Assembly (NCBI GenBank): GCA_964568855.1
Contig: CAZMSD010000015.1
Span: 15,458 to 79,457, forward strand
Direction of reading: 5' to 3'
DNA: 64,000 nucleotides
DNA from: an uncultured Bacteroidaceae bacterium
GTDB taxonomy: Bacteria; CAIWAD01
Shown here: piece by piece, positions 30,231-51,368 of the stretch
How the letters are laid out: each line of letters begins with the position of its first letter
Numbering within the stretch: position 1 is the first letter of the stretch
The notes under the pieces: model-generated
What the model was told of the DNA's origin: nothing
Databases searched by the model: none
The model's input: only the letters and a program-made list of their open reading frames with translations
Made by a program: the position numbers and the translations under genes

Positions 30231-30271
30231 GGTTGAAAAAGAGGCCCCCGACCGCCACAGCGGCCGGGGGC
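30231..30271 (-). terminator. Rho-independent terminator after paralog A
   Basis: Minus strand reads GCCCCCGGCCGCTGTGGCGGTCGGGGGCC followed by TCTTTTTCAA. Confidence 0.7.
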
Positions 30272-30325
30272 AAGGGTGATGCTGTCGGTGCGCAGTACGC
30301 GGACAGCGGTCCTAAACGAAGCAGC

Positions 30326-31996
30326 TTACTTCGCCAGCACCATCTTCTTGGTGCTGCTCAGACCGGCCGTCTCGAGCGTGTAGAAGTACACACCGGAGCT
30401 CAAATTGCTGGCATCGAAGGTGACGCTCTGCTCGCCACGCTCCATCATCCCATTCACCAGGGTGGCCACCACTTCGCCGTTCAGGTTGTAGACCTTCAGG
30501 CTGGTCAGACCGGCCTCGGGCACCGTGAAGTCGATGGTGGTCGCCGGGTTGAAGGGATTCGGGTAGTTCTGGCCCAGCGTGAAGTCGGCCGCCAGCTCGT
30601 TCGCCTCGACGCAGTCGTCCTCGTACCACCAGCAGATGCTCACCTGGTCGCAAATGCTGATCGGCGAGTCTACCCAGAAGGTCTGGTAGTAGTCGGGCGC
30701 ACTGTCGTACTCGAAGAAGAACAGGCCGGTGCTGGAGTTGATGTCCGCGCAGGGTGGGTCACCGCCCGTCCACAGGTAGGTGCTGCCGTCGATGCAGGGG
30801 CCGCCCCAGGCCATGGGATCCACTGCGGGATCGCCGCCCGGCAGGAAGCAGTAGGCCAGGCCGATGCAGCCGTCGGAGGGCAGGAAGAACGAGAACCAGT
30901 ACTCGCCGGCGTCCATCGGGGTGGCGGGCACGCAGGGATAGGTTCCATGCCATCCGCTCACATCGGTGAAGTTGCACCAGTCGCAGAGGTTCAGGTTCAT
31001 CGAACCGGCATTGTCGTAACCCATGTAGTTCATGTAGTCCAGGTCGGTGGTCAGGACGTCCGGATTCGTGCAGTCGTTGTCCTCGTCACAGCAGATCTCG
31101 CAGTCCATGGCGATGATGTACGGACCGGGGGCCGACCAGTCGGTGCGAACCTCGACCATGTAGTAGCCTGGCTGCAGGCAGCACTCGAGGTGCGAGTCGT
31201 AGCCTTCGCCGCCGTCGTCGTCATAGCAACCCACGGGTACGCAGTTCATGTCGTAGATCTCGATCGCCGGATCCAGGCCGAAGCCGAAAGGCGGCATGCC
31301 AAAGGTGTCATCGCCGTAGACGTCGAAGATCACGTTGGTCTCTTCGTCAAGGGAGAACCAGAACCAGTCGCTGTCGCCGGAATCCAGGATCTCGCCGCAC
31401 TTGGCCTGATCGCAGTTGATGTCGTTCAGGTAGTCGCCGCAGTAGTCGCCCGGGGTCGGGTAGTCGTCCACGTGCCAGATCAAGCCATCGGGGCAGACGA
31501 ACTCTTCGGGAGCTTCGCAGCAGGTGAACTCGATCGTGAAATCGCCGGCGTTGCCGTAGTAGTCGGCGATCATGATGAAGTAGTCTTCACCCAGATCGAA
31601 GAGCATGTCGCTGCATTCCATGTAGGTCTGCCAGCCGTTGCCCCAGGCACAGTTGCCGTCGCCGTCGCGGTAGAACAAGAGGGTTCCGCCGCACTCGTCG
31701 TAGATGTAGAGATCCGTGTCAAGATCCGGAGTCGCCTCGAAACAGGTGGCGATCTCAAGACCAACACCTTCTCCCACGTACTCGAACCACTGCACGCCAC
31801 CCGCCGTCAGGGTGTAGACGGCCGGGCCGTAGTCGCAGTCGATAACGATAGCTTCTTCACAGGTGTTGTCACGATCGACGGGCACTTCAGGCCTGTCCCG
31901 CTTCTCGACGGTCACGCTCTGCATCTCCATCGTGGCAAAGCTTGTGCCGGCAAGCAGCCCAAGCAAGGCCATGCTACAGATGATTCGCTTCTTCAT
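30326..31996 (-). CDS. Cys-rich secreted protein with T9SS type-A CTD (paralog A)
   Basis: Signal peptide MKKRIICSMALLGLLAGTSFA. N-terminal region (CEEAIVIDCDYG...WFEYVGEG.GLEIATC) shared with paralogs B and C. C-terminal GQNYPNPFNPATTIDFTVP...GVYFYTLE...KMVLAK. Confidence 0.8.
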   Translation of the reverse strand: MKKRIICSMALLGLLAGTSFATMEMQSVTVEKRDRPEVPVDRDNTCEEAIVIDCDYGPAVYTLTAGGVQWFEYVGEGVGLEIATCFEATPDLDTDLYIYDECGGTLLFYRDGDGNCAWGNGWQTYMECSDMLFDLGEDYFIMIADYYGNAGDFTIEFTCCEAPEEFVCPDGLIWHVDDYPTPGDYCGDYLNDINCDQAKCGEILDSGDSDWFWFSLDEETNVIFDVYGDDTFGMPPFGFGLDPAIEIYDMNCVPVGCYDDDGGEGYDSHLECCLQPGYYMVEVRTDWSAPGPYIIAMDCEICCDEDNDCTNPDVLTTDLDYMNYMGYDNAGSMNLNLCDWCNFTDVSGWHGTYPCVPATPMDAGEYWFSFFLPSDGCIGLAYCFLPGGDPAVDPMAWGGPCIDGSTYLWTGGDPPCADINSSTGLFFFEYDSAPDYYQTFWVDSPISICDQVSICWWYEDDCVEANELAADFTLGQNYPNPFNPATTIDFTVPEAGLTSLKVYNLNGEVVATLVNGMMERGEQSVTFDASNLSSGVYFYTLETAGLSSTKKMVLAK

Positions 31997-32194
31997 AAGG
32001 GTCCTCCCACAAAGCTTTAGGGGTTGTGAAATGAGTTTATGTGGTTGTTTAGTGACGAATCGGCTTTAGGACGAGTCTTTTGGAGCAAGAGGCGTGCCAG
32101 AGTATTCAGACAATTATCCAAGATCAAAGAGCTTTGAAAATCAGGCACTTGAACTATCGCTGAATCCCACTCAGGTCTCAATCCCGGTACGAGA

Positions 32195-32227
32195 TGTCGG
32201 AACTTGAACAGCTCTTGCCCGATACTG
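32195..32227 (+). promoter_or_regulatory. conserved box TGTCGGAACTTGAACA-N6-GCCCGATACTG, 199 nt upstream of paralog A
   Basis: See the box at 30026. The flanking sequence is otherwise unrelated. Confidence 0.5.
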
Positions 32228-32594
32228 CACGAAGTCCCACACTATTATTTGGTCTGAAGTGGCCGTGAGAGTGTCTAAAGCTATTATATTTCTGAATGGT
32301 CAAGTTCGTCGACAATTATCTTCTGCTTGTGATTCCAAGGAAGGAAGTATACATAGAAACTGTATGCGAGTTGATCCGCATTCCCTCGTCGGAGAATTGA
32401 AGCTGCTCAGCCAAAGTCAGAATTCTCGGTAGCGAGAAAGCTTCGCAGCGTCCATCGGCGTACTCCTTTGTGCAGCGCAGTCGGTAAGGCCGGGAAAATG
32501 GGACTCTGAAGCCAGGCTGTTCTGTGCTCAACGGCGAACATGTGATAAATTCGAACACGTCGCATCAGCTGAATCCAGCGAGGAAAACCGCACG

Positions 32595-33788
32595 ATGAAA
32601 ATCATCCCCGCCCGCCGCACGGAGAACATCCGCTATGCCGTCCGGGACGTTATCCTGGTGGCGGATGAGGCGAAGCAACAGGGCCTGGAAATGCTGTACC
32701 TCAATATCGGGGACCCCAATCCCTACGGCTTCCGCACACCGCCCCACATTATAGAGGCGACCATCGAGGCCTTGCAGGCCAACCACAACGGCTACAGCCC
32801 TTCCTCGGGAATCGAAGAGGCGCTGGCGGCCATCCGGCGGGAGGCCGAACGCAAAGACATTCGCGAAGTCCGCGACGTCTTCATCGGCACTGGGGCATCG
32901 GAGGCCATCGAAATCGCGCTCAGCGCCCTTGTAAACCCGGGCGAGAATTTCCTCATTCCTTATCCGGGTTACCCTCTGTACAGCGCCCTGCTCTGCAAGC
33001 TGGACGCGGAAATCCGGCCCTATCACCTGGACGAGGACCATGGCTGGCAACCGGACCTCGCCGACATCGAAGCCAAGATCGACGACCGCAGCCGCGGAAT
33101 CGTGCTGATCAATCCCAACAATCCCACCGGTTCAAACTGCGGCGAAGACACACTGCGGCAGGTCGTGGAACTCTGCCGCCGCAACGGCATGGTCCTGTTC
33201 TCGGACGAGATCTACGACAAGCTGCTCTACGACGGCGGCCGGCACATCAGCACGGGCTCCCTCTGCGACGATGTCTGCGTGCTGACCTTCAACGGCCTCT
33301 CGAAAAACTACGTGGCGCCCGGCTTCAGGCTGGGCTGGTGCATCGTGTCGGGTCCCGAGGAAACCTGCACGGAATACCTGGACGCCATGCTCAAGCTGAC
33401 CCGGGCCAGGCTCTGCGCCAACCACCCGGAGCAGTACGCCATCCAGCCGGCCCTGGAAGGGGACCAGAGCCACCTTCGCGAAATGAACGAAACCCTGCGG
33501 CGCCGCGCCGAACTGACGGACCGGATGCTCAATTCCATCGAGGGCATTTCCTGCGTCCGGCCGGGGGGCGCCTTCTACGCCTACCCTCGACTGGAAATCG
33601 AAGAAGCGGACAGCGACTTCGTGCGCGCGCTGATCCTCGAAACGGGTGTGGTGGTGGTTCCCGGCGACGGTTTCGGCCAGCGTCCAGGTACGCGCCATTT
33701 CCGGGTGGTGACTCTTCCCGGAGACGAGATCCTGGAAAAGGCCTACGGACGTCTCGCGGAGTTCGCAGCGGCCCGGCTGCGCCGCTAA
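32595..33788 (+). CDS. pyridoxal-phosphate-dependent class I aminotransferase (AlaA/AspC-like)
   Basis: Motifs NPNNPTGS and SKNYVAPGFRLGW (PLP-binding lysine). 397 aa. GAGGAAAA Shine-Dalgarno. Confidence 0.85.
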   Translation: MKIIPARRTENIRYAVRDVILVADEAKQQGLEMLYLNIGDPNPYGFRTPPHIIEATIEALQANHNGYSPSSGIEEALAAIRREAERKDIREVRDVFIGTGASEAIEIALSALVNPGENFLIPYPGYPLYSALLCKLDAEIRPYHLDEDHGWQPDLADIEAKIDDRSRGIVLINPNNPTGSNCGEDTLRQVVELCRRNGMVLFSDEIYDKLLYDGGRHISTGSLCDDVCVLTFNGLSKNYVAPGFRLGWCIVSGPEETCTEYLDAMLKLTRARLCANHPEQYAIQPALEGDQSHLREMNETLRRRAELTDRMLNSIEGISCVRPGGAFYAYPRLEIEEADSDFVRALILETGVVVVPGDGFGQRPGTRHFRVVTLPGDEILEKAYGRLAEFAAARLRR

Positions 33789-34804
33789 CCCGTGTACAGA
33801 ATACGCTTGGAGCCGCTGCGTATCACAACGGAGCTATGTTTGAGTGCGACCATGAAGGCATGCCGCCATGTTGCGAGGATTGACTGTCCAATATCGAGCA
33901 CCTGCGGCGGGAATTGGACACTCTCAAGGCAGCCGGCCCGTCATGGGAAATTGCAAGCTGTTGAATAATTTGAACTAAGCGAACTCCCATCCGTTGGCAC
34001 ATCTCTTGCACAACGACCACCGGATCGGGTTCTTCAGAAAAGAATGATCCTGGGTGCTGAATGGACAAGATTTTTGAAGTTCACAACTTCACAATGGATG
34101 ACCTGCCCGCTGTTAGGCAGATGGCGCGCCGGGTTATCTTCCATTCAAACCTCCTAATCTCCTCACCCGTATTTCTGATTTTGCTATTGGTTCTGTGTCT
34201 TTTCGGCATGTAACCAGGATCAAAGCCGCTATCTTTTTCTGAAGAGCCCTTTCCATCTTTCAATCAGAAGCAATCTCAAAATAGAGTTGCATGTCCCGTC
34301 AAGGGACTGGTTCATCGAATGGAGGTTCGTCTCTCTCACAAGCATTTGTTGTCCGTCGACCCTGTTCAGCCTGTTCGATTATGGGCATGCGTAGCGGCTA
34401 CTGCCCATCTCCCACAAGCGTCTGAGTTATAAGGGGTTATAAACTGGATTCTGGAGTTAGATCGACGGCTGAGCCTTTTGAGGTGCTCGATTTAGGACAA
34501 CGCGGCAAAATCAGAATACAGTCCCTGTGAAGGAGCTGTAGACGCTAGTGCTTGTTTTCCTTATACCTGCAAGAAACCCGTTCGTGGAAGAAGCTATGGC
34601 ATAATGCTTGCTGTGCTTCTCGCCCGAATGGGTTTCTTGTTGAGAAGTGATTGGTAGGCAGGCACCCCCATTTCAGCGGGCTTTGTACCCCCCTTCACAA
34701 AGTCTGTTCTGAACCCCTTCTCGACACCACCGTTTGATTTTGCTAATTCACCGCCTGCCCGCCGATCGCGCCGCTATCAACCAGGAACCCATTTTTTCTC
34801 TCTC

Positions 34805-37800
34805 CTAGGGTCCCGCCTCAGCGCGCTCGAGCGCCTCGAAGTAATCCCGGATCAGTTCCTCGATGTCCGGCGAATAGCCCGCCTCCAGCGCCCGCAGCAG
34901 GTCCCGCTGCAGGTCCTCGGTACGCCTTTCCAGGTCCAGCGCCGGGGGTTCGGGCGCCTGGAGCACCCGGGCCGTGCGGCTTTCGCGCTTCCTGGACTGG
35001 TCCTGACGGCGGATTGAACGCTGCGCGTCCAGCAGGCGGGTCAGGATGCGCTCCTGCAGCCGCTGCGTACGCTCCGTATAGACCTGGTCCTCCAGGTCCT
35101 TTTCCACTTCGCGCATGTCGCCCGCGATCTTGCCCAGGTCGCCCGTCTGCGGTTGTCCCTCCTCGCCCAGCTTCTCGCCGATTGATTCCACTTCCTGCCG
35201 GATGCCGCTCTGCTGAGCCTGCGCTTCGCCGAATGAAATGGACATGGGCTTCTGGGCCTGGCCGGGTTTGTTGCAGAGCAACTTGTTGCACTGTCCGTTG
35301 AGGCATTCCTGCTTGCTCGAGGCCTGGGAGAGCTGTTCCATCAGCTCCTCGAATCCCGTTGACGAACACGAGTTCCGCATCTGCTGCTGCGCCTGTTTGA
35401 GCAGCAGGATGGTGCGGTTCACCTTGCCCATGACCTGCGGCCCGCGCCGGCCGAGTTCCCCCAGCCTGCGCTCGTGGTAGTGCTCCAGCATGCGGTCCAG
35501 GTTGGAGAGCGCGTCGCCCAGGCTGGTCATCGCCGATTTCGGAATATGGAAGCTTCGCCGTATCAGGTCCATCAGGGCGTCGGCGCTGGCACTGACGCCC
35601 AAGCGGTTCTCGACTGTGTGCTCCGCCAGTTCGGGAACGCGGGCGCTGCGCCGGGTCAGGGTTTTCACCTCGCCGTCCACCGCCTCCTGGCTGAGTGAGA
35701 TCACCAGCAGCTCCTGGCAGACCCGGTCGATATCGCGGCTAAGCTGTTCCATGGCCTGCTGCCGGGAGTTTCTCAAGGCCTGCTGCAGCATTTCCGCCAG
35801 CATGTTGAGGTCCTGGTCCAGCCGTTCGCCGCTCTCCTGCGAAGCACTGTCGCCCGCCTTGAGCTGCTGGGCCATGCGACCCATGTCGGGCGGAATCTCC
35901 TGTTCGTCCATGTGCCCGGCGGCGCGGTCCACCTGCTCCTGAGGGAAGCTCTCGCGGTCGCCGAATTCCTCCTCCAGCGAGTCCAGGTCCCGCCGCAGCT
36001 GCTCCGCGTCCTGCTCGAGCCGTCGCTCCTGGGCGGCCGCCCGGTTCCGCTCCCTTTCGGAAGGTCGGCCTTCACGCGCGGCTTCCTCGTCTTGCCGGTT
36101 GACCTCGCGCTGGCGTTCGAGCAGCTCCTCGGCCCGGTTCGCCAGTTCCTCCAGGCGCTGCTCCAGCCGCAACTGCTCCAGCACCGCCAGGAAGCGGTCG
36201 AGCTGCTCTTCCATCTGCCGCAGCAGCTCCTCCAGGTCGCGGGCCTGGGCGCGTCGATCCTGGTCGGCCGGCTTTTTCCGCGCCTCCTCCGCCGCCTTGC
36301 GCAGGCGCTCAAGCAGCTCGGGATCGATCACCTCGTTCAGCACTTCCTTGAGGTGCCGCAGCTTCTCCCGCAGCTCTTCGGAGAACAATTCGTTGCGCTC
36401 CATCTTGCGTTCGAGGCGCTCCAGCCGCTCCCCCACCTCGGCGGCCCGTTCGATCAGCTTCTCCTGCCGCTTGAGTACCTGCTTCATTTTCTGGCGGCGT
36501 TCCCAGTTCATCTCCGGGTCGCGCTTCAGTTCTTCCTGGAATTCTCGGATCCGTTCGCGGTTGCGGCGGGTTTCCTCGAGGATTTCCCCGGCTTCCTCCA
36601 TCAGCTCTGACTGGTCCTCCTCCACCTCGGCGAAGAGCTCCTCTACGCCGGGCACTTTCACCCGGTAAAGCGCCGTGCGGACCGCCTTGGGTCCGTGCCA
36701 GCCGTCGTTATCGAAGAGCTCGAGGTAGAAGTAGAGTTCGTCGTCGGGCAGCAGGCCTTCCTCGGCCAGGTTCCATTCCCACTCGAGGGCCGCGCGCCGG
36801 GGCGAGCCCAGCGACTGCAGCTCGAGGTCGCGCTGCGCCCAGTCCGCGGGGGGCTCGCTCAGTGCCGCGGGATCGGGTGCTTCGAAAAGCGAGCGCAGGA
36901 CGCTGGAGACGGTCTTGTGAACCATGCGCAGGCTGCTGAAACCGTAATCGTCCTCCGCCAGGGCCACGATCTGCAGGCGCAGGTCGCGCTCCAGCCGGCT
37001 CTCCAGGCTTTCGGGGCTGAGCATTCTCAGGTTCGGGGGCCGGTCGGGAATCACCTTGAGGCTGTGCTTCACGGGCGAGCGGTTGTCCAGGCCCTCCGGA
37101 TCGCTCAGCTCGATCCACCAGGCACCGTCGCGGCGTGCCCTGAATTCCGCAAGGAATTCAGGCCTGGATTCCGGCGGCGGTTCAGTGGCCAGAAGTCCGG
37201 GATTGTCTTCCAGGAGGTCCGTGCGCCGGATTCCGCGAGGACCCTGGATCAGCAGTTCGGCCCGGGCCAGGGTTTCCGAGACGCGCCCCCCCACCTGGAT
37301 CAGGCTGCCCACGGGACAGACGAGATCGCCCGTACCGGGTTCCAGTTCGCGCCGCGGCAGGTTCGTGTAGTAGGGCGGACGGACTCCCACGTGAAAGTCC
37401 TCGAGCCGGGGAGGATCCAGCACTTCGACGACCAGCGTATCCGAGTGAATGTCACGGGTCCTGCCCAGGGTGGTGACGCCGGCCTGGGCCCAGAAGCGGG
37501 TGGGACCCTGGATCTTCAGCCCGCTCAGCTCCGCCCGGCCCCGTCGCACCAGCAGGGGCCAGCTTCTCCGCGGCCCATCCGGCGCAGTGACCGCCGATGG
37601 CTCCGTCCGCTCCGGGAGCCTTTCGGAGAACAGCCTCAGCTCGCCGGGGATGCGGTTGCCCACCGGTCGCACGCAGAAGTTCAGCTCCTCGCCGCGCACA
37701 ACAACCGTGCTGTCGGCGCTGAGTTCCAGCGTGAAGGGCGGCGCAGGCCGGAAATCCCGCAGGGGATCCACCAGGCGCTGGGCGGCCAGGCGGCTGTCCG

Positions 37801-41585: not shown

Positions 41586-42914
41586 CTAAGCGGCCCGTTC
41601 CCGTGATACGGCCGTCTTGGTTTTTCTCCAGAGGATGTCGAGGCTCTCGACCAGTTCAGAACGCGTGAGTCGAAGGTCCCTCCACCAGCTGCCCTCGATC
41701 TCGCGCAGGAAGCGGCGATTGAGATACAACTTTGCCAGAACCGCCGAACCCGCCGTGGCCAGCGCCGCGCCCAGGATGCCCAGGCGGGGGATCAGCAGCA
41801 GGTTGAGGACGATGTTGGCCCCGAGACCCATCAGGTGCATGTATACCGGCACCTTTGGATCGCTGGAGGATGTAAAGTACAGCGAGATGGCCCCGGAATT
41901 GCTGCGCACGATGATCACGCCCACGGTCAGTACGGCCAGGGCCGGATAGGCCGCAGGGTACTCGGGTCCGAAGAGCAGCAGCACGGGATAACCCAGCGCG
42001 AGGATTCCCAGCCCCAGAAGGAAGTAGATCGGGAAGCTGAGGCGATAGACGCGGGCGGCCAGGGATCGGGCCTCGGCGATTTCCATCTCCGCCACCGCCG
42101 GGAAAAAGGCGGTCTGTACGGAGGCCTGCAGATCCATGACACGGGAGATGGTCAGCACGCAGATGGTGTATAGCCCCAGATCGGCGGGACTCACGCCCAT
42201 GCTCAGCCCGACGAACCAGGAGACCATGATGGCGTCCAGGCGCAGGTTGAGCAGGGAGAGCAGGTTGGCCAGCCAAGGGTTGTGGCAGTAGCCAATTACC
42301 TCGCGAAGACCGCTGAAGGTCCAGGAAAGCAGGGGCAGATGCAAGTACCTCAGGGCCACCAGCAGCGCGATGAATCGACTGAGGCAGTAAGCCCCCAGCA
42401 CCGGCGCCATCGACTTTCCGAACAGCAGAATCGCTGAAGCCATAAATAGCAGGGTGAGTGCAGACCTGAACAGATCGATGCGATTGTAACCACTCACCTG
42501 GTCACGAACCAGCAGGATCTGCCTGAATACACGAGTGAAGATCTCCAGGGGAAAGATCAGGCCCACCAGGATCCTGAGCAGGCGGGGGTACTGTTCGAAG
42601 TAGCTTATCAGCCAGAATTCCGCAACCACATGGAAGGCGAGGTTTAGGATGATGGAGTTGATCAGCAGCAGGGGCATGGCCCGGCGAAGGTATTCAACGT
42701 CTGGCATCGCCCGACGGCGGGGAAAGAAAATCGCGCCGGCTTCCAATCCGAATGCGGAGATCGTGAAGAACAGACCACAGAGCACGATCATGTAACTGAT
42801 CACACCCTGGAGCTCCGCGCCGAAGGCCCTGGCGATCAGGACGGCCAGGGCGAAATTGAACACCCGGACCAGCAGCCGGGTGCGGAAAATCAGGACAACA
42901 TTACGAAGCATCAA
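41586..42914 (-). CDS. wzx: polysaccharide biosynthesis protein / Wzx-type flippase (MOP superfamily)
   Basis: 12 or more predicted transmembrane helices. Family-typical N-terminus MMLRNVVLIFRTRLLVRVFNFALAVLIAR. Confidence 0.7.
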   Translation of the reverse strand: MMLRNVVLIFRTRLLVRVFNFALAVLIARAFGAELQGVISYMIVLCGLFFTISAFGLEAGAIFFPRRRAMPDVEYLRRAMPLLLINSIILNLAFHVVAEFWLISYFEQYPRLLRILVGLIFPLEIFTRVFRQILLVRDQVSGYNRIDLFRSALTLLFMASAILLFGKSMAPVLGAYCLSRFIALLVALRYLHLPLLSWTFSGLREVIGYCHNPWLANLLSLLNLRLDAIMVSWFVGLSMGVSPADLGLYTICVLTISRVMDLQASVQTAFFPAVAEMEIAEARSLAARVYRLSFPIYFLLGLGILALGYPVLLLFGPEYPAAYPALAVLTVGVIIVRSNSGAISLYFTSSSDPKVPVYMHLMGLGANIVLNLLLIPRLGILGAALATAGSAVLAKLYLNRRFLREIEGSWWRDLRLTRSELVESLDILWRKTKTAVSRERAA

Positions 42915-43124
42915 CTCTCGGCGCTTTCACAGCAACTATCTCGCAGAATATGCCATATGCGCCGCGAAACGAAGGCGGGTATCGAAGGCGCGGTCGCGGA
43001 CCGCCATTCGCCTCGCGATGCCCGGCCCTGACTGTCGGCGGATAGGCGGCTGTGGTTATATTGTCCGACCGGACCAGGGGCGCCTGGTCCGCTTCAGGAA
43101 CGCGGGATCAACTGGAATCCGATA

Positions 43125-43916
43125 ATGAACCAAGCATCGGAAATCGTCAAGACAATTCTGACTCGTTGCCGGGAGGTCGTCGGTTACCTGTCGTACTTCG
43201 TGCTCCCCAGGCCGTCCAACCAGCGGCGGGCTGTGATCTTCGCCCAAGGCCGGACGGGAAGCACCCTGCTGGAAAGCCTGCTCAGTTCCACCGGATCCCT
43301 GCGCAAGAACGGGGAACTGTTGAGCACCAAGAGATGCGAGATATGGTTCCCGAAGCAGTTCATCAGCGGCCTGTCCAAGCTGTTCCCGGGCAACTTCATC
43401 TTCCATGTCAAGATCTACCAGCTGACCAAGTACCGGAAACGGCCCGTCGATCCGACGGCATTCCTGACCATGTTGCAGGAGCGGGGCTGGAAGATCATCT
43501 ACCTGAGGCGTGAAAACCGGCTCAGGCAAAGCATATCGAACCTGGTCGCCGAGCATCGTGGCGCATATCATAAACTGAGTGGATCCTCAGAAAAGATCCG
43601 TATCAACGTTGACTGCGAGGTCTTTGTTGAAAAAGTGAAAGAGCTTCTCATGTTCGAAGAGCACGAACGAGAAGTTCTTGCCGATCTTGAGTATCACGAG
43701 GTCGTCTACGAGGATGACCTTGAGAAGCCGGAGATGCATCAGGAAGTAGCTGACAGGGTTTTCGAATACCTCGGCCTGGAACAAGGTACCATCCGCACGA
43801 ACTTGAGAAAAATCACCACGATGTCCTTGCGGGAGCTGATCATCAACTACGACGAATTCGAATCCACCGTGCTCCAGAACGGGTGGGGGCACCTGCTGGA
43901 CAACCGTTCTAAGTGA
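43125..43916 (+). CDS. PAPS-dependent sulfotransferase (Stf0-like family)
   Basis: 5'-PSB motif FAQGRTGSTLLESLL, with an RxxxS 3'-PB-like region downstream. 263 aa. Confidence 0.7.
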   Translation: MNQASEIVKTILTRCREVVGYLSYFVLPRPSNQRRAVIFAQGRTGSTLLESLLSSTGSLRKNGELLSTKRCEIWFPKQFISGLSKLFPGNFIFHVKIYQLTKYRKRPVDPTAFLTMLQERGWKIIYLRRENRLRQSISNLVAEHRGAYHKLSGSSEKIRINVDCEVFVEKVKELLMFEEHEREVLADLEYHEVVYEDDLEKPEMHQEVADRVFEYLGLEQGTIRTNLRKITTMSLRELIINYDEFESTVLQNGWGHLLDNRSK

Positions 43917-43920
43917 GCAG

Positions 43921-46242
43921 ATGCGGCGCTCGCAGGAAGGAAACAGTGGCGCGGCACACGATTCCCGTTCGTCCCGGTCAGGGACATCTCGAGAGAGCGA
44001 GGGCGCCTGTGGAGACCTGTCGGGAGCCGGGGTGAACGCGAACCGCACGCATACCCCGAGTGGGATGTCCGCTGCGCCTCCTTCGGTTCTCAGGCTCTAC
44101 ATTGATCTCGTATCACAGACTTCCCTTGCGCAACTCTCCCGGCGCGCCCGGCGGATCGTGAAGAACAAGGTCTTTCCCGGGCTGCGCGCCTTTCTTCGAT
44201 CCGCCGCCGATTCCGAACGCAGACTCTACCGCAGGCTGGCAGCATCGAGCCATCTTGAGCGGGCCGCCCGCTTGTACTTCGAGTCGGGAAGCCGGGCCGC
44301 AAGCGAGGAACTGGCGCGGGTTCTGGAAGCCTCCGAGACGGAAGCCTGGCCGGTGAACGCCACCTTCTGGTCCGCCGCGATCAAGGCGCTGCGAGAGACT
44401 CACGCCGAATTAGCGGAGAGTATCACGGTACGGGCGCGGGAATCGTTGAAGCGCGAATTCACCTCGGAGGGTTCGCCGAAGCTGGCGTTGGGCCAAGTGA
44501 TCGACTGGCAGCCCGGGGAATTCGATCATTGCGAGAAGACCTACGCGCTGAATCGCCTGTATCACCTGCCCCTCCTGGCGATCGCAGCGCGGCTCAACGA
44601 TGATGGCCGCTGCCTGGAAGAGTTCGAGGACCTGCTTCACCAATGGGTGAATTCGAATACGGACCGGCGGGGGAAACCCTGGAACGAACTGACGACCGCG
44701 CTGCGCCTGAATTCGATTCTGCTGGCCTACGGATGTCTGCGGGGCACGGGCCGACTCGGCGCCCGGGCGCATCTCGACGTCATGCTCGCACTGACCAGCC
44801 ATGCCGACTACCTGGCCGCCAACCTGGAGTACGACATCCTCAACAATCACCTGGTCTTCGAGGGGCGCAGCCTGATCGAAGCCGCCTGCGCCTTTCCCCG
44901 GCTGCCCGGCGCGAAGCGGTGGCTGAAACGGGGGATGGCAGCCCTGGACCGGGAGCTGGCGCACCAGGTCCGACACGACGGCTGCCACGCCGAGCAGTCA
45001 ACGGGCTACCACATGCAGGTGCTCCAGGAGTACCTGACGGCCGTCGCGATCCTGCGATCCGGCGGATCCGCGGTGCCCGCCCAGTGGGAGCCCGCGCTGC
45101 AGCGGATGACGGACTTCCTGGTCGAAATCACCAGGCCCGACGGAACTCCGCCGATGCAGGGCGACACGGCCCTGCACGACCCGCAGACGCCATACGTCGA
45201 GGAGGTCCTGTGCTGCGCGGCCTCGATCCTGGGGTGTTCCGGGCTGTACGCCGGAGAGCGACCGATGCTGAGGGCTTTCTGCCTGCTGGGCGATAAACTC
45301 CCGTCCCCGACGGCGGAAGTCTTCCGCACGAAGGCTTCGGGCAGCAGGCTTTTCCCGGACGGCGGCTGCTGCATCCTTCGCGGTGATACAGGCGACGCGC
45401 GTGCGATGGTCAGTTTCGACTGCGGGCCCTTCGCCCTGGAGGACAGCCCGGCCCACGGACACGCGGACGCCCTGAGTTTCGAGTTTTCGGCCTTCGGCCG
45501 GAATCTGGTGGTCGACCCCGGTGTGTTCACCTACCAGGCCGGCCGGTGGCGCGATTTCTTCCGGGGAACCAGGGCCCACAACACCATAGGCGTGGACGGG
45601 ACGGACCAGGTTCACTTGTGGGGCGCTTTCCGCGCCTACAGGCCCAACGGGGCGCGGCTGCTGTCGTGGGGGGACGAGGGCGGACTGGCCTGGGCGGACG
45701 CCGAGTACCTGCATCGCGCGAGCGGAGTGGTCCACAGGAGACGCCTGGTCCTGCTGGAGAGCCGGCTGCTGCTGATAGCCGACCGGCTGTGGCGGACTCG
45801 GGCGCACGATTTCTGCTGGCGCCTGCACTTCCCGCTTTACGCGGCGGAATTCAGGGCGAACCAGTGCGGACACCTGCTGATCGTGCGGGCGGCGCGGGGC
45901 GGGGACTCGGCCTGCGGACTCGCAGTGCTGTGTCACAGTGCGGAGGGCGACCTCCTTGAGATCGTCGAAGGATCCGAGGACCCCCCGCAGGGCTGGATCT
46001 CGTACGCCAAGGGCGTGAAGGAAGCCGCCCCCGTTCTCGAGTGGACGCGCCGCGCGGAGAGAGAAGCGACGTTTTTCAGCGCGCTTTTTCCGTTCCAAGG
46101 TGATACACTGCTGGATGAATTCAGCCTTCACGTCGCCGGCGACCCCGCCGGGGAACCGATCCTCGGCGTCAGGGTCGGACCGAAGGAATACGAACTGCGA
46201 CTGGAAGAGAACCGACCCGTATGGTTGAAGCCCTCGCGCTAA
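43921..46242 (+). CDS. heparinase II/III-family protein (alginate-lyase-like N-domain plus heparinase II/III C-domain)
   Basis: Conserved ...NHLVFEGRSLIEAACAFP...GYHMQVLQEYL...DCGPFAL..HGHADALSFE... region typical of the family. Could start at the internal Met at 44065. Confidence 0.65.
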   Translation: MRRSQEGNSGAAHDSRSSRSGTSRESEGACGDLSGAGVNANRTHTPSGMSAAPPSVLRLYIDLVSQTSLAQLSRRARRIVKNKVFPGLRAFLRSAADSERRLYRRLAASSHLERAARLYFESGSRAASEELARVLEASETEAWPVNATFWSAAIKALRETHAELAESITVRARESLKREFTSEGSPKLALGQVIDWQPGEFDHCEKTYALNRLYHLPLLAIAARLNDDGRCLEEFEDLLHQWVNSNTDRRGKPWNELTTALRLNSILLAYGCLRGTGRLGARAHLDVMLALTSHADYLAANLEYDILNNHLVFEGRSLIEAACAFPRLPGAKRWLKRGMAALDRELAHQVRHDGCHAEQSTGYHMQVLQEYLTAVAILRSGGSAVPAQWEPALQRMTDFLVEITRPDGTPPMQGDTALHDPQTPYVEEVLCCAASILGCSGLYAGERPMLRAFCLLGDKLPSPTAEVFRTKASGSRLFPDGGCCILRGDTGDARAMVSFDCGPFALEDSPAHGHADALSFEFSAFGRNLVVDPGVFTYQAGRWRDFFRGTRAHNTIGVDGTDQVHLWGAFRAYRPNGARLLSWGDEGGLAWADAEYLHRASGVVHRRRLVLLESRLLLIADRLWRTRAHDFCWRLHFPLYAAEFRANQCGHLLIVRAARGGDSACGLAVLCHSAEGDLLEIVEGSEDPPQGWISYAKGVKEAAPVLEWTRRAEREATFFSALFPFQGDTLLDEFSLHVAGDPAGEPILGVRVGPKEYELRLEENRPVWLKPSR

Positions 46243-47384
46243 GCGTTTTCTGGCTGAGCCTCGCGGCGATAGCCTACATCTACCTGGGATACCCCCTGGT
46301 CCTGATGCTTTGCGATCGGGGCGACACTGCCGAAAATCCGGAAACGCCAGGAGACTGGCCCTCCATCAGCCTGATCATCGCCGCGCACAACGAAGAGGGC
46401 GTGATCGCCGAGAAACTGCGGAACACCCTGCGGATCGACTATCCCGCGGACAGGCTCGAGGTCGTGGTCGCTTCGGATGCTTCCGACGATCGCACGGACC
46501 GGATCGTCCGGGGCTTCGCCGGAAGCGGCATGCGCCTGGTCCGTGTGGAGGGCCGCCGCGGCAAGACCAGCGCCCAGAACGCGGCCGTGAAGGAGACCAC
46601 CAACGAGATCATCGTTTTCTCCGACGCCAACGCCATGTACGACAAGGACGCGCTGAAGAAGCTGGCCAAGCATTTCTCCGACGAGGGCGTCGGCTGCGTC
46701 GAAGGCCGGCGGCTGGATTTCGACGCCGAGTGCGCGGCTACGGCGCGTCACGAACTGACCTACCGCGACTACGAATCATGGATCAAGCGGCTGGAGAGCC
46801 GCGTGGCGTCGTGCACCGGCGCTACGGGCCCGATCTACGGGGTGCGGAGATCCTGCTACATCGAGCTGCCCGCGGAAGCCATCAGCGACCTGATGGAACC
46901 GATCATGATCATGCACGTCCATGGGAAGAGGCAGGTCTTCGAGCCGGGAGCGATCTCGCGGGAAACGGTCCTGGCGGAGATGTCCAACGAATTCCAGCGC
47001 AAGGTCAGAATCATCACCCGCTGCCTGAACAGCATCACCAGCGTGCCCGGCCTGCTCAACCCTTTCAGCGGCGGCGTTTTCGCCCTGCAGATCTGGAGCC
47101 ACCGCCTGCTGCGCTGGATGCTGCCCCTGTTTGCACTGCTGGTCCTGGCCGGCACTTTGACGCTGTCGCACCGGCCGCTCTTCCTGCTGGCACTGCAGGC
47201 GCAGCTGGCCTTCCTGCTGGCGGTGCTCCTGGGATTCCTGCTCGACTGCCGGAACCTGGGACCGTCGATTCTGCGCCTGCCCTACTACGTGTTCACGGTG
47301 AACGCGGCGGCCCTGCTGGGCCTGCTCAACTGGGTCCGCGGGAAGAACATCCTGGTCTGGGACCCGGACCGGGGCAATTCGTGA
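46221..47384 (+). CDS. family 2 glycosyltransferase (membrane-bound, processive-type)
   Basis: ISLIIAAHNEE...DASDDRT...FSDANA (DxD) motifs with C-terminal transmembrane helices. Confidence 0.75.
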   Translation: MVEALALSVFWLSLAAIAYIYLGYPLVLMLCDRGDTAENPETPGDWPSISLIIAAHNEEGVIAEKLRNTLRIDYPADRLEVVVASDASDDRTDRIVRGFAGSGMRLVRVEGRRGKTSAQNAAVKETTNEIIVFSDANAMYDKDALKKLAKHFSDEGVGCVEGRRLDFDAECAATARHELTYRDYESWIKRLESRVASCTGATGPIYGVRRSCYIELPAEAISDLMEPIMIMHVHGKRQVFEPGAISRETVLAEMSNEFQRKVRIITRCLNSITSVPGLLNPFSGGVFALQIWSHRLLRWMLPLFALLVLAGTLTLSHRPLFLLALQAQLAFLLAVLLGFLLDCRNLGPSILRLPYYVFTVNAAALLGLLNWVRGKNILVWDPDRGNS

Positions 47385-47414
47385 TACAAGATCGGCGGCC
47401 GACGGGCCGGCGGA

Positions 47415-48539
47415 TCACCTTCCGCCCAGCACCTCCACAAGCCGCTTGACCAGCTCCGCGTGCTCGTCGGTGTAGGTATAGTGCTCCGCGGGCAGGGCAA
47501 TCATGTTCTCCCGCCACTCGCGAATCAAGGAATGCGGCAGGTCGAGCAGCCGTCGCACGCTGCTCGCGTCCCGGATATCGACGCTGGTTCCGATCCCAAG
47601 ACTCTCCACAACTTCCGCCTCGTCCGTGCCCACCTGCGAAACCAGGGGCACCTTGAAGCAACAGGCGTTGTAATACCGGCAATGCCTGGACCAGAGATAG
47701 CTGTCTTTACCGTCGAAACCGGCTGTCCAGACCAGGTCGACCTGCGAGTAGATCTCTCCAAGGTCCTCCGGATCCTTGTATGGACCGCCGTAGATGATTT
47801 CCGGGCACCGCTCAACGTCGGTATGAAAGGACTCGATATCCTTGGGCGCCCCCCGTACGTACAACTGTACTCTACCTTCCGCCTCCTCAACCAGGCTCAC
47901 GAGCGCCGCCCAGGCCACTGGACAGCGGATCGAACCGAAATACCCGATCCTGATCCTGCCGTCCGGCGGAGGCGATTGCTGGATCCGCGCGGGTACTTCT
48001 TCGGGATGAAGCTTGTTTTCGATCACCTGGAAAGGAGGATCGACCATTTTCAGCAGGCCCTCGAAGTAGTTCCTTACATAGGATGGGGAGGTGACCACAA
48101 GGTGATCTGAGCGGCCAGCCAGGCGCCTGTCGACGCCGCGCAGGATCGATGAGACCAGGCCGCGTCTCGTGAGAATCCCCCGGATGTCCTGCACCTCGTA
48201 GACGATGGCCGGCTTCCTCGACTTGAACAGCAGGGAGATGAAGCAGAGCAGGAGCGCATCCAGGCCGAAGCAATGTGCGACATCGGCCTTGTCCATCGCC
48301 GCCCTGACCTTTGGAATTCCTCGCAGCAGGTCCATCAGCCGCGAGAAATAACGGCCATGGCGGTTCGTGCCGAGCGAACAACAGGCAAAGGGATAGGCCA
48401 AGGATGGATAATTCAGCTCGCGGTCAAAGCCGATGGCCTCCACGGGAACCTCGAGCTCGTGTACGGCGAGCATGCGCTTTCCATGAAACGGATAGTTGAG
48501 CATTGAGCTGAGGAAGAGGTACTTCGGTTTCTCTTTCAT
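47415..48539 (-). CDS. glycosyltransferase (GT-B fold, GT1/GT4-like)
   Basis: Start placed at MKEKPKYLFLSS (ATG 48539), avoiding overlap with the divergent GT4 gene. Rossmann-like halves. Confidence 0.55.
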   Translation of the reverse strand: MKEKPKYLFLSSMLNYPFHGKRMLAVHELEVPVEAIGFDRELNYPSLAYPFACCSLGTNRHGRYFSRLMDLLRGIPKVRAAMDKADVAHCFGLDALLLCFISLLFKSRKPAIVYEVQDIRGILTRRGLVSSILRGVDRRLAGRSDHLVVTSPSYVRNYFEGLLKMVDPPFQVIENKLHPEEVPARIQQSPPPDGRIRIGYFGSIRCPVAWAALVSLVEEAEGRVQLYVRGAPKDIESFHTDVERCPEIIYGGPYKDPEDLGEIYSQVDLVWTAGFDGKDSYLWSRHCRYYNACCFKVPLVSQVGTDEAEVVESLGIGTSVDIRDASSVRRLLDLPHSLIREWRENMIALPAEHYTYTDEHAELVKRLVEVLGGR

Positions 48540-48709
48540 GCGCAAAGCGGCGGATTCGAAATTCAGCAGATCTGAACCATGTGTCACAGGACATGAACCG
48601 GACGGCCCGGTTCCTGAATCTACGGATCCCAGGTCGTTTTCCTTGGACCGGGAGGGCACAATACACTTATTTCCGAGGTTTTTCGTAGCCTGTACGGGTT
48701 CCAAATCCA

Positions 48710-49906
48710 TTGGAACATGCAAGTTGGGAGTGGCTCTTGCGCATTGCTCATCTCATGCTGGGGGTCGAGGCGGGCGGCGCCACGGTGATGATGCTGAGAT
48801 TCGCGCTCGAGAGCCGGCGACGGGGGCATGAGGTACACGTCTGCGCATTCCGCGACGGAAGCGTGGCCCGCGATGTGGCTCCGCATGGACTGCCCTACCA
48901 TCTTGCTCGGCGCCTGCCCGGCGGAAATATGTGGAACCGGATCAACGCGATCCGGCGGATGACAGAACTCCTGCGCGACTTGAAGCCGGACGTGGTCCAC
49001 TCGCACACCTACTTTCCCGATATCATGGCCCGGCCGGCGGCTAAGCGCGCGGGAGTGCCCGTGATCGTGACCTCGGCTCACACGGACATGACCGGGGGTG
49101 CGGGTCTGGCCGGCGGGGGTTGGCCGGGAAGGAACTGGGTGATACCGAAACTGGTGGAAGCCACGGATCACATCGCCCATAGAATCTACGCGACTTCCAG
49201 TGAAATTAAACAGTCCCTGATCCGCCAGGGCGTCGAAGCCCGGAAGATCATCTGCGTGTTCAACGAGATCGACTATTCGCGGTACGCCGACTCTTCGAAC
49301 CGGGAACCCATAAGACAAGCCGCTCGCGAGGAACTGGATCTAGGGAGCTCCGATTTCGTCATCGGCACCACCGGCCGGCTGGTCCAAGTGAAACAGATCG
49401 ACCTGATCATCCAGGCCGTGGCGCGCCTGAAGAAGGACCTGTCCGACATCAAGCTGGTCATCATGGGTGACGGCAGCGAGCGATCCGCCCTGGAAGCGCT
49501 CTGCGAACGCCTGCAGCTTCGGAACGAGGTGCGCTTCACCGGCTGGCGGGACGACGTTCCCAGGCTGTTGAAGGCGCTGGACGTCTTCGTCATCGCTTCC
49601 CGGATGGAATCCACCTGCCTGTCCCTGCTCGAAGCTATGGCCAGCGGCTGCGCCTGCGTCGCCTCGCGCGTGGGAGGCATCCCGGACATTCTCCAGCACG
49701 AGGGCCTGGGTCTGATGTTCAGGAAGGGCAGCGTGGACGAACTAGCGTTACAGCTCCAACGCCTGCACCAGGACGTGGACCTGCGCGCCCGGATTATCAC
49801 CCAGGGGGGGGAGCATGTGAAGAAACACCACAACCTGGCCCGGGGTAGGGCGGTTGACCTGATTCTGAACGACTACCGCCTGCTGCTGGAAAACGCACAG
49901 AAGTAG
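48710..49906 (+). CDS. family 4 glycosyltransferase
   Basis: GT4 signature ...RMESTCLSLLEAMASGCACVASRVGGIPDIL.... N-terminus RIAHLMLGVEAGGA. Confidence 0.8.
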   Translation: MEHASWEWLLRIAHLMLGVEAGGATVMMLRFALESRRRGHEVHVCAFRDGSVARDVAPHGLPYHLARRLPGGNMWNRINAIRRMTELLRDLKPDVVHSHTYFPDIMARPAAKRAGVPVIVTSAHTDMTGGAGLAGGGWPGRNWVIPKLVEATDHIAHRIYATSSEIKQSLIRQGVEARKIICVFNEIDYSRYADSSNREPIRQAAREELDLGSSDFVIGTTGRLVQVKQIDLIIQAVARLKKDLSDIKLVIMGDGSERSALEALCERLQLRNEVRFTGWRDDVPRLLKALDVFVIASRMESTCLSLLEAMASGCACVASRVGGIPDILQHEGLGLMFRKGSVDELALQLQRLHQDVDLRARIITQGGEHVKKHHNLARGRAVDLILNDYRLLLENAQK

Positions 49907-49952
49907 CAGGAGTGAACCGTTAGCAGGAAGATCCCGTAAATCCGAAACATCT

Positions 49953-51368
49953 TTGCGACGCCTCGCCATGTGGAGTGATCGTTTCGTCGACAGCCTCCAG
50001 AGTCTGCCGGGCAGAAACCCCCGGCTCGAAGCGATTTTCGTCGCCGCCTGTGCCTTTCCAGCCGTTCTATCGACGTGGATAATCTTCGAGGGACTGGGTC
50101 AAAGCAAGCCGATGATCGCCCTTACGGGCGTCTGCGCCCTGGTCGTGCTGATGATCCTGATGCTCGGTATCCGCGAGCCCCTGAGTCTCGCCCTGGTTGT
50201 ATTCCCCCTCAGCCTGATCAAGGCTTCCGAGAACTTCGACCTTTTGTACGGAATCGTGATCTGGTTGCTGTTTCTGCTCTACCTGGGCCTGGACAGGTTC
50301 AGCGAGGGGCGACTCAACAGCCGCGAGTTCTGGATTCTGCTGCTGGTGATGATCGCCCCCGCCTCCGGCATCATCAATGCCATGGACACGATGAAGGGAG
50401 CGCTGCAGTACGCCGGCACCATCCTGCTCCCTTTCGGGCTGTACCTGGCCATCCTCAGGCATTCGAAAGGCCCGGAGCTGATCGACCGCATCATCCGGGT
50501 TACCATCTGGGTCTTCGCCGCGATCGGCTGCTCCAGCATGCTGATGAAGATCCTGGATCCTTCGATTCCCCGGCTGGGCGGCCCCTTCACGTTGTATTAC
50601 ACGTCCCTGGGCTACGCCGCCGCGGCGATTCTGCCGCTGTGTTACTACCGGGTGGAGCATTCCAGGCACAGAACCCTCGAACTGGTTCTGCTGGCCCTGG
50701 TCTTCACCGGAATGCTGCTGACCAACACGCGGATGGCCCTGATAACCACTTTCATCGGCGCAATGTTCTTCTTTCGGCGGATGAAGTTCCTGTTCCTGCT
50801 CGGCGGAATCACCATTGCGATGCTACTGCTCGGCGAGCAGCTCGACGTGTTCGGAAGGATCCAGGAGATGTCCCAATCGGACGTCGACATCAGCATTCTA
50901 TCGCGAATCATGGGCTGGATCGCGGGCATCAAGATGCTGGGATTGGAACCCCTGCTGGGCATCGGTTACCACACCTACGAGTTCGAATACGTTCAATTCA
51001 TCAAGGTCCCGATAATCCGTCTGTTTCATGCGCACAACCTGTTTCTCAACAAGTTCCTGGAAATTGGCTTCCCGGCGGCGATCCTCTTCCTCGGATATAT
51101 CCACTACACGGTAATTTCCAACCTGTTTCGCACCGCCCGCCGATCCAGCCCTTTCGGCGACTTGAGATATTCCCTCGCCGTCGCCTGTCTCTGCTACCTC
51201 CTTGCCGGCATGACGGACGAGGTCCTGCGCCAGACGGGCTGGTGCATGTGGTTCTTCATGATGCTGGGTTGTTTGCGAAGGGCGGAACTGGAAGATCGCC
51301 GTGCTTCAATCCAAGTACACACGTCTCACGGCGCGGATCGACTTGAAACAGGCGATCGCCGCCAGTAG
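49953..51368 (+). CDS. wzy: O-antigen ligase / Wzy-like polysaccharide polymerase
   Basis: About 12 transmembrane helices with a periplasmic-loop motif (TNTRMALITTF) typical of O-antigen ligase/polymerase families. Confidence 0.6.
   Translation: MRRLAMWSDRFVDSLQSLPGRNPRLEAIFVAACAFPAVLSTWIIFEGLGQSKPMIALTGVCALVVLMILMLGIREPLSLALVVFPLSLIKASENFDLLYGIVIWLLFLLYLGLDRFSEGRLNSREFWILLLVMIAPASGIINAMDTMKGALQYAGTILLPFGLYLAILRHSKGPELIDRIIRVTIWVFAAIGCSSMLMKILDPSIPRLGGPFTLYYTSLGYAAAAILPLCYYRVEHSRHRTLELVLLALVFTGMLLTNTRMALITTFIGAMFFFRRMKFLFLLGGITIAMLLLGEQLDVFGRIQEMSQSDVDISILSRIMGWIAGIKMLGLEPLLGIGYHTYEFEYVQFIKVPIIRLFHAHNLFLNKFLEIGFPAAILFLGYIHYTVISNLFRTARRSSPFGDLRYSLAVACLCYLLAGMTDEVLRQTGWCMWFFMMLGCLRRAELEDRRASIQVHTSHGADRLETGDRRQ

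Follow-up and report, generated by a model that had tools for sequence, protein, structure and literature searches.

What kind of polymer is built by a locus in which a putative sulfotransferase stands beside a heparinase-like protein amid genes for glycan assembly? This question is raised by seven contiguous open reading frames (ORFs; 41586-51368) on contig CAZMSD010000015.1 from an uncultured Bacteroidaceae bacterium, lying within the 64 kb stretch of DNA that was analyzed here as a whole (the window). The initial annotation had taken them for a locus producing a sulfated, glycosaminoglycan (GAG)-like surface heteropolysaccharide through Wzx/Wzy-dependent assembly. Of this proposal, the sulfated heteropolysaccharide is well supported by the Wzx/Wzy-type gene complement and by the motifs, fold and genomic context of the sulfotransferase, and a sulfated Wzx/Wzy glycan is the likely product. 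We favor, as reasonably probable, a hypervariable surface-glycan island (O-antigen-like or exopolysaccharide (EPS)-like) at a conserved site between genes for SurA-like chaperones and ftsEX, with the tailoring pathway proposed below.

Gene identities, folds, conserved motifs, missing signal peptides and genomic associations are direct findings of the analysis; the following substrates and order of steps, along with a supply of 3'-phosphoadenosine 5'-phosphosulfate (PAPS) and an epimerase rather than a lyase chemistry, are what we infer. A priming phosphoglycosyltransferase encoded elsewhere would start a repeat unit linked to undecaprenyl diphosphate, and the three glycosyltransferases (GTs) of the locus, namely GT2, GT-B and GT4, would extend it on the cytoplasmic face. 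A cytoplasmic Stf0/NodH-like sulfotransferase would move sulfate from PAPS to a sugar hydroxyl of the lipid-linked oligosaccharide. On the same oligosaccharide, the heparinase-like enzyme, related to polysaccharide lyase family 12 (PL12), might abstract the C5 proton of a uronic acid via a conserved His/Tyr/His set, the most likely outcome being a C5 epimer, i.e., a residue of the L-iduronic or L-guluronic type. Finally, Wzx would flip the finished unit and the Wzy-like protein would polymerize it.

The sulfotransferase and its family

The protein retains both of the motifs by which sulfotransferases bind PAPS. The GRTGST sequence recognized in the initial annotation is present at residues 42-47 and constitutes the 5'-phosphosulfate-binding (5'-PSB) loop (G42-R43-T44-G45-S46-T47): all 31 homologues of the family alignment have R43 and G45, and at least 90% have S46 and T47. 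Likewise, R129, N131 and S138 of the 3'-phosphate-binding (3'-PB) motif (Y126-L-R-R129-E-N131...S138) are invariant, and so, where the third strand ends, is K96, with H94 nearly so; the PAPS-binding residues are, in short, conserved rather than lost on alignment. In the AlphaFold2 (AF2) model (predicted local distance difference test score, pLDDT, 94), the 5'-PSB loop follows a strand at residues 35-40, and the 3'-PB strand at 122-128 leads into a helix at 132-145. A Foldseek search of the PDB with this model returned Mycobacterium Stf0 (1TEX; E 1e-5, template-modeling (TM) scores 0.57/0.60) at the top and SULT7A1 next, with 3-OST, TPST and SULT1E1 further down; the top eight matches are all sulfotransferases, and P-loop kinases rank lower.

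Several results nevertheless speak against the identification. The protein scores 26.0 bits with PF13469, against a cut-off of 27, in a match spanning the 5'-PSB region only, and 18.2 bits with PF09037 (Stf0), against a cut-off of 22, both matches covering just the N-terminal 30-40 residues; the precomputed annotation of the identical protein does give PF13469, flagged as 'faint'. Further, the match to the Stf0 fold is modest (TM ~0.6), and comparison with the sequences of PDB chains, whether by single sequence or by profile, yielded chance matches only, which points to a remote member of the superfamily. Could the 263-aa protein then be some other P-loop-like enzyme, such as a kinase or nucleotide-binding protein, leaving the polymer unsulfated? 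Guanylate and adenylate kinases do figure among its lower-ranked fold matches. However, it lacks the lysine of the Walker-A GK[ST] motif, its GRTGST loop is of the 5'-PSB type, the R-x8-S spacing of its 3'-PB motif is invariant, and all of the leading fold matches are sulfotransferases. Moreover, many members of the family attain PF13469 in precomputed annotation, and in one Vicinamibacterales metagenome-assembled genome (MAG) a family member is followed directly downstream by a gene for adenosine 5'-phosphosulfate (APS) kinase (L057:10696-11163, + strand; PF01583, 2e-47), at the point where the contig ends. Hence, we regard a non-sulfotransferase as highly improbable, and the assignment to the PAPS-type sulfotransferases stands on its conserved motifs, its fold and the occurrence of its relatives in polysaccharide loci.

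A search of 5.8 billion proteins recovered 344 relatives, most of ~262 aa and mostly unnamed or labeled 'LPS sulfotransferase NodH' (LPS, lipopolysaccharide). The closest are 51-55% identical and include cyanobacterial proteins of Calothrix and Phormidesmis, the best among species representatives being 55% identical. Across 80 sampled genomes, which span numerous phyla (among them cyanobacteria, Bacteroidota, Planctomycetota, Gemmatimonadota, Actinomycetota and Pseudomonadota) and in many cases are marine or saline, the genes adjoining family members encode GT2 enzymes (27 loci), Wzt-like ABC ATPases (20), GT4 enzymes (18), further sulfotransferases (6+3) and sulfatases (6). In an exhaustive profile search, the cluster representatives numbered 517 at E<=1e-30 and 2061 at E<=1e-10. 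With so many representatives at the stricter threshold, and with loci for sulfated capsular polysaccharides (CPS) and EPS already published, the earlier description of bacterial sulfated polysaccharides as rare was overstated. Sulfotransferases have been described or proposed in Wzx/Wzy or ABC-type loci of cyanobacteria (synechan; PMC8205485), Vibrio sp. KMM 8419 (PMC11641403), Cobetia (PMC11766843) and Pontiella (PMC7356697), and these, together with an annotated locus of Salinibacter, mean that this kind of locus is already known. What is distinctive here is the presence beside the sulfotransferase of a cytoplasmic PL12-like enzyme from a common biosynthetic family.

The heparinase-like protein and its reaction

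The placement of the second enzyme in the heparinase II/III family is secure: both Pfam domains are strong (PF16889 Hepar_II_III_N, 5e-30; PF07940 Hepar_II_III_C, 2e-37), and it matches heparinase III (4MMH) by sequence with E 7e-17. Its N261/H262, Y315/H316 and H464 align with N240/H241, Y294/H295 and H424 of Pedobacter HepC (numbered as chain positions plus 24), of which we take N240/H241, Y294 and H424 to be the catalytic Asn/His, Tyr and His, respectively. H262, Y315, H464, H466 and D468 are invariant in 32 homologues. The AF2 model (pLDDT 90) is helical to about residue 411 and continues as a beta sandwich. Its closest Foldseek match is the PL12 lyase 4FNV (TM 0.71/0.77), followed by PL17 and PL15 alginate lyases; human dermatan sulfate (DS) epimerase 1 (6HZN; E 2.7e-18, TM 0.59/0.57) and other toroid-plus-sandwich lyases are also matched.

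Its sequence features and relatives point to a life in the cytoplasm. No signal peptide is found with any of the three possible starts (gene callers choose 44065 or 44032, and 43921 merely marks the longest ORF), and there is no hydrophobic N-terminal segment; the maximum 12-residue hydropathy is 0.98, as against 2.0-2.8 in three secreted proteins of the same window. Signal peptides are likewise absent from 106 homologues, the few hydrophobic N-termini among them belonging to fusions with GT4 domains. Such fusions, ~1100-1240 aa long with an N-terminal GT4 and a C-terminal heparinase-like part, make up about ten of the 120 best homologues (P0139, P0146, P0177, P0181, P0191, P0199, P0210, P0211, P0217, P0231). 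The same order recurs in three related loci (L085, L086 and L087), where a GT4 gene stops within a few bases of the start of the heparinase-like gene. This arrangement links a lyase-fold family to cytoplasmic glycan assembly. Across 83 metagenomic loci with reconstructed neighborhoods, the adjoining genes encode AsnB-like amidotransferases (35), members of the UDP-glucose/GDP-mannose dehydrogenase family (23), epimerases of the short-chain dehydrogenase/reductase (SDR) type (12), exosortases (6) and Wzz (6). The company of AsnB-like, dehydrogenase and SDR epimerase genes indicates biosynthesis of an EPS or O-antigen containing uronic acids, possibly amidated, rather than catabolism. The suggestion that the protein is biosynthetic, not catabolic, is thus plausible, given the missing signal peptide, the GT4 fusions and its position among GT genes. 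In one of the related clusters, a PF00884 'Sulfatase'-family protein (L086:7251-8696, + strand) is encoded between two GT4 genes; judged by its context it is more likely a transferase of a phospho-substituent than a sulfatase.

What reaction might such an enzyme catalyze? As a cytoplasmic enzyme, it would take as its target a uronic acid within the lipid-linked repeat unit, and the reaction is probably C5-epimerization. The initial annotation had gone further in stating that members of the family found in biosynthetic clusters are frequently C5-epimerases. In the literature searched we found no biochemically characterized biosynthetic Hepar_II_III protein and no experimental basis for that statement, which goes back to the fold of DS-epimerase 1 (PMC8006597) and has to be read as a hypothesis rather than as established knowledge. 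The toroid/sandwich lyases are matched by DS-epimerase 1 in fold and in catalytic residues, and since lyases and C5-epimerases of this fold share both the proton abstraction and the residues involved (PMC8006597), nothing in the sequence separates one from the other. Both points count against the epimerase assignment.

The protein could instead be a true lyase with a role in trimming or quality control linked to biosynthesis, analogous to that of AlgL in alginate synthesis: it would cut beside a uronic acid, either clearing mis-made polymer or leaving an unsaturated terminal residue. All of its closest solved relatives are lyases, its catalytic Tyr and His residues are conserved, and lyases and hydrolases are common within polysaccharide operons. 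However, operon lyases such as AlgL are periplasmic and bear the signal peptides that this protein and its homologues lack; the fusion partners of those homologues are cytoplasmic GT4 domains; and the cytoplasm of a Wzx/Wzy system holds only short lipid-linked units, whose cleavage would undo synthesis. We therefore deem a lyase unlikely, although this is the reading preferred by the authors of a study on VV0358 of Vibrio vulnificus YJ016, a PF07940 protein of a capsule locus that is needed for the capsule (PMC6037467). Two considerations favor epimerization: cleavage of a short lipid-linked unit would be self-defeating for synthesis, and C5-epimerization at the glycan level prior to flipping has precedents, namely VpsJ of Vibrio cholerae at the lipid-linked stage (PMC13463779), and Agl32 of Halobacterium salinarum, an epimerase that tailors a lipid-linked glycan alongside Agl30 and Agl31, both sulfotransferases (PMC12624080).

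A bolder conjecture, to which we give rather low credence, builds on the preferred epimerase reading. The cytoplasmic heparinase-III-like family occurs commonly in loci for EPS and O-antigen, in many cases as fusions to GT4 and in the company of uronic-acid genes. Its signal-peptide-less PL12-like members, fused to GT4 or encoded directly after it, might be widespread bacterial glycan-level uronate C5-epimerases, i.e., prokaryotic counterparts of DS-epimerase and perhaps its evolutionary source. In the present locus, combined with a horizontally acquired sulfotransferase, such an enzyme would give rise via Wzx/Wzy to a sulfated polymer containing L-iduronate or L-guluronate, and a logic of epimerizing and then sulfating, like that of animal GAGs, would have evolved independently. 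Were the family indeed to consist of C5-epimerases, this would account for the entry of some L-configured uronic acids into bacterial glycans and would link these bacterial enzymes to the animal dermatan-sulfate epimerases.

The island: gene content, variability and likely product

Gene order and strands agree between the ORF list of the window, the initial annotation and independent gene calls from JGI and ENA assemblies on identical metagenome contigs (L001-L004), which confirms the seven genes of this Wzx/Wzy-type glycan locus (Table 1). The island is bordered by SurA-like/rotamase genes on the left and by FtsX/FtsE on the right. The start of the GT2 gene overlaps the stop of the heparinase-like gene by 22 bp, and the sulfotransferase gene lies 148 bp upstream of this pair in the same orientation. 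A promoter scan of the region between wzx and the sulfotransferase gene gave a number of sites not above that of shuffled sequence, and a terminator scan likewise did not exceed shuffled controls.

Table 1. Features of the glycan island, with positions counted from the first nucleotide of the window
Feature	Position	Strand	Description
wzx	41586-42911	-	Wzx-type (multidrug/oligosaccharidyl-lipid/polysaccharide (MOP) family) repeat-unit flippase, 441 aa, multi-pass membrane protein
intergenic wzx/sulfotransferase	42915-43124	.	210 bp, divergent; presumed promoters, judged from gene layout only
sulfotransferase	43125-43916	+	Stf0/NodH-like PAPS-type, 263 aa, predicted cytoplasmic
heparinase-like	44065-46242	+	heparinase III (PL12)-like, 725 aa, cytoplasmic; predicted uronic-acid enzyme (C5-epimerase or lyase)
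GT2	46221-47384	+	membrane-anchored glycosyltransferase, 387 aa
GT-B	47415-48539	-	GT-B-fold (GT4-like, 'ExoL'-like) glycosyltransferase, 374 aa
GT4	48755-49906	+	retaining glycosyltransferase, 383 aa
Wzy-like	49968-51368	+	O-antigen polymerase/ligase family, 466 aa, multi-pass membrane protein

Two lines of evidence reveal how this island has evolved, namely its base composition and its comparison with a distant relative, L085, whose housekeeping flanks are 40-71% identical to those of the window and which carries an island between the same flanking genes. The G+C content (GC) of the island is 0.54-0.66, as against 0.65-0.73 in the flanks and housekeeping genes; by gene it is 0.543 in the sulfotransferase, the lowest in the region, 0.594 in GT-B, 0.60 in wzx, 0.644 in GT2 and 0.66 in the heparinase-like gene. 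Between the two islands, the heparinase-like protein (50% identity) and GT2 (60%) are conserved close to the level of the flanks, and Wzx, Wzy and GT4 are 33-41% identical. L085 is without the sulfotransferase and GT-B, whose place is taken by a Chondroitinase_B/beta-helix protein and a second GT4. These patterns bespeak the usual hypervariable O-antigen/EPS locus reshuffled by recombination, in which the heparinase-like gene and GT2 are the old, vertically inherited core, and the sulfotransferase seems to have been added more recently, by horizontal acquisition, as a decoration specific to the lineage. The island is not marked by a tRNA gene, by direct repeats on its flanks or by a mobile-element signature. 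The beta-helix protein of L085 (7482-8828, + strand; 448 aa; Chondroitinase_B/NosD/beta-helix) is encoded between two GT4 genes at the position of the sulfotransferase and has a fold shared by the C5-epimerase AlgG and by lyases; a similar 'right-handed parallel beta-helix' gene (L089:10424-11737) lies directly upstream of a NodH-like sulfotransferase on Salinibacter ruber plasmid pSR84.

The low GC of the sulfotransferase gene, much below that of its neighbors, and its absence from the syntenic L085 might also mean that it landed in a recombination hot spot and modifies some other acceptor, be it a lipid, the LPS core, a Nod-factor-like lipo-oligosaccharide or a small molecule. Indeed, the substrate of Stf0, the enzyme closest to it in structure, is trehalose, sulfated for a sulfolipid, and members of its family are named 'NodH'. 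Set against this are its placement inside the island, co-oriented with and just upstream of the heparinase-GT2 pair; the settings of its relatives in the 80 genomes, where polysaccharide loci with GT2, GT4, Wzt and Wzx genes predominate; and two heparinase-like loci elsewhere that gained a different, PF13469 sulfotransferase. An acceptor outside the island's glycan is accordingly quite improbable in our view.

The pathway we favor also has to reckon with a number of observations that weigh against it. The ORFs scanned over the whole 64 kb window include none for PAPS synthesis or sulfate activation (cysDN/cysC), a priming phosphoglycosyltransferase, Wzz/Wzc, Wza or a sugar 6-dehydrogenase; a hexosamine gene is not found among them either. 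With regard to priming and chain length, Bac_transf and Wzz genes follow the heparinase-GT2 pair in the non-syntenic L086, suggesting that these functions are probably unlinked here. Further, the pairing of the two tailoring enzymes is not conserved: the heparinase-like gene occurs in none of the 80 sulfotransferase-family loci, the window's sulfotransferase family in none of the 83 heparinase-like loci, and a sulfotransferase of any kind in only two of the latter. Hence, a dedicated functional coupling between the two is unproven. In those two loci, both from soil or sediment metagenomes, a canonical PF13469 sulfotransferase (E ~1e-26; L112:4662-5372, + strand; L169:5773-6816, - strand) stands beside the heparinase-like gene; with a different sulfotransferase family involved, this appears to be a separate acquisition, so that the combination of the two functions would have arisen more than once.

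The assembly genes themselves differ in how readily they are recognized, and the profile matches uphold the earlier family assignments for Hepar_II_III_N/_C, GT2, GT4 and Wzy_C but are weak for the sulfotransferase, Wzx and GT-B. Wzx has only a weak Pfam match to MurJ (E 2.8e-4), with ~10-12 hydrophobic segments, and its counterpart in L085 (34% identical) belongs to PF01943 (Polysacc_synt). The Wzy-like protein matches PF04932 (Wzy_C, 1e-12), has ~10 hydrophobic segments and is 33% identical to its L085 counterpart. GT2 contains PF00535 (Glycos_transf_2, 2.5e-22) and PF13641 along with hydrophobic segments at both the N- and C-terminus, and is 60% and 55% identical, respectively, to the GT2 encoded directly downstream of the heparinase-like gene in L085 and L086. 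GT-B has no significant Pfam match of its own (PF13439, E 0.0067); several of its 20 detectable relatives have PF13579 (Glyco_trans_4_4) or PF13439 (Glyco_transf_4), and its homologues are named 'glycosyltransferase family protein' or, in one case, 'succinoglycan biosynthesis protein ExoL'. GT4 matches PF00534 (Glycos_transf_1, 9e-39) and PF13439 (6e-25), its best NCBIfam match being TIGR03088, a GT of the PEP-CTERM/XrtA system, below the cut-off. NCBIfam gave no match for the sulfotransferase, Wzx, GT-B or the Wzy-like protein. We also considered GT2 as a processive synthase of a GAG backbone, in the manner of hyaluronan synthase (HAS) or NodC, and rejected this: a canonical QxxRW motif is missing (QRKVR stands there), the N-terminal partial matches are far below the equivalog cut-offs, and both Wzx and Wzy are present.

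What, then, does the locus make? The presence of at least three GTs and a Wzy implies that the repeat unit comprises several sugars and that the polymer is not a disaccharide chain made by a synthase; with three GTs plus an unlinked primer, the unit would contain about four sugars. Consequently, 'GAG-like' is apt only in the loose sense of an acidic, sulfated and possibly epimerized heteropolysaccharide, but not in that of a disaccharide backbone made by a synthase. Sulfated bacterial polysaccharides are sought as non-animal replacements for heparin-like and carrageenan-like materials, and they influence the binding of metals, phage recognition and the carbon cycle of saline habitats. To the candidate producers the present locus contributes another, found in an uncultured lineage; compact at seven genes, it is tractable for heterologous reconstruction.

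Elsewhere in the window, a second stretch of lower GC (24000-36000; 0.58-0.61 versus ~0.67 elsewhere) encodes a protein with a C-terminal sorting domain of the type IX secretion system (T9SS; 26525-28243, - strand) and contains long ORFs without a Pfam match (24268-25164, 28495-29871 and 30167-32020); this could be a further region of surface proteins, either acquired or evolving fast. Together with DUF4159/DUF4175 and the match in Salinibacter, the T9SS domain hints that the high-GC host belongs to the FCB group and is possibly Rhodothermota-like. On the - strand at 15346-19577 are genes for the elongation factor SelB (15346-17262) and the selenocysteine synthase SelA (18063-19577), with one for a TerB-DnaJ domain protein (17274-18053) between them. 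Two ORFs overlap on opposite strands, 10343-14653 (-, 1436 aa) and 11102-14461 (+, 1119 aa), neither with a Pfam match. A 746-aa protein (1611-3851, - strand), unlinked to the island, has a borderline FGE-sulfatase (formylglycine-generating-enzyme-like) domain (E 6e-5, at the cut-off).

Comparison with known systems

Against the bacterial polymers that are GAG-like in the strict sense (those of the heparosan, chondroitin and hyaluronan type), the island stands apart: their hexosamine-uronate disaccharide backbone is made by a processive or bifunctional synthase and a UDP-sugar dehydrogenase is encoded in the locus, and the island has three separate GTs with Wzx and Wzy and neither dehydrogenase nor hexosamine genes. 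Closer in organization is the xss locus for synechan of Synechocystis PCC 6803 (PMC8205485), likewise a Wzx/Wzy heteropolysaccharide locus with sulfotransferases among GT genes and with the outer-membrane polysaccharide export (OPX) gene unlinked. It differs in having eight GTs, two sulfotransferases, a polysaccharide co-polymerase (PCP) and its own regulators, and in lacking a heparinase-like protein; synechan is also a neutral-sugar polymer, unlike the product proposed here. A tblastn search with the window's sulfotransferase against a plasmid collection, in which the presence of pSYSM is unconfirmed, returned no match to a Synechocystis plasmid. The cluster on pSR84 of Salinibacter ruber M8 (NC_014157; Rhodothermota) shares with the window Wzx, an O-antigen polymerase/ligase-family protein and several GTs, its 'NodH' sulfotransferase being 31% and its GT2 32% identical to those of the window. 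Unlike the window, it has a second sulfotransferase, a priming sugar transferase, rfbABCD and the beta-helix protein, and it is without a heparinase-like gene.

On the side of the heparinase-like protein, the PL12 lyases (Pedobacter HepC, 4MMH; Bacteroides BT4657, 4FNV/5JMD) share both Pfam domains, the fold and the aligned catalytic residues. However, they are only 17% identical to it, and it lacks a secretion signal; it scores 96 bits against the 700-bit cut-off of the NCBIfam HepC equivalog; and its gene overlaps a GT gene in a biosynthetic operon rather than lying in a polysaccharide-utilization locus. The VV0358 protein of Vibrio vulnificus resembles it in being a PF07940 protein of a capsule locus, and no sulfotransferase is reported with VV0358 (PMC6037467). 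Human DS-epimerase 1 (6HZN; PMC8006597) offers the (alpha/alpha)-toroid plus beta-sandwich fold and the His/Tyr/His set, which, being common to this epimerase and the lyases, do not discriminate between the two activities. It acts on glycan-bound glucuronic acid (GlcA) at the uronate C5, with sulfation later in the pathway; the heparinase-like enzyme would likewise act on a glycan-bound uronic acid. The two proteins show no detectable sequence similarity, no DUF4962 match is reported for the heparinase-like protein, and DS-epimerase 1 works in the Golgi lumen as against the cytoplasm.

Finally, the parallel in pathway logic comes from the N-glycan pathway of Halobacterium salinarum (PMC12624080), which comprises the GTs Agl25-28, the GlcA C5-epimerase Agl32, the sulfotransferases Agl30 and Agl31 and the flippase Agl29. 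This system is archaeal, uses a dolichol carrier and yields a protein N-glycan instead of a polymer; Agl32 (372 aa) is, unlike the heparinase-like enzyme, devoid of a PL12-type beta-sandwich, its model being nearest to cellobiose 2-epimerase (AglQ family). Yet the glycan is built on a lipid carrier, epimerized at the glycan level, sulfated and flipped, just as we propose for the present locus, and in Halobacterium sulfation depends on epimerization (PMC12624080).

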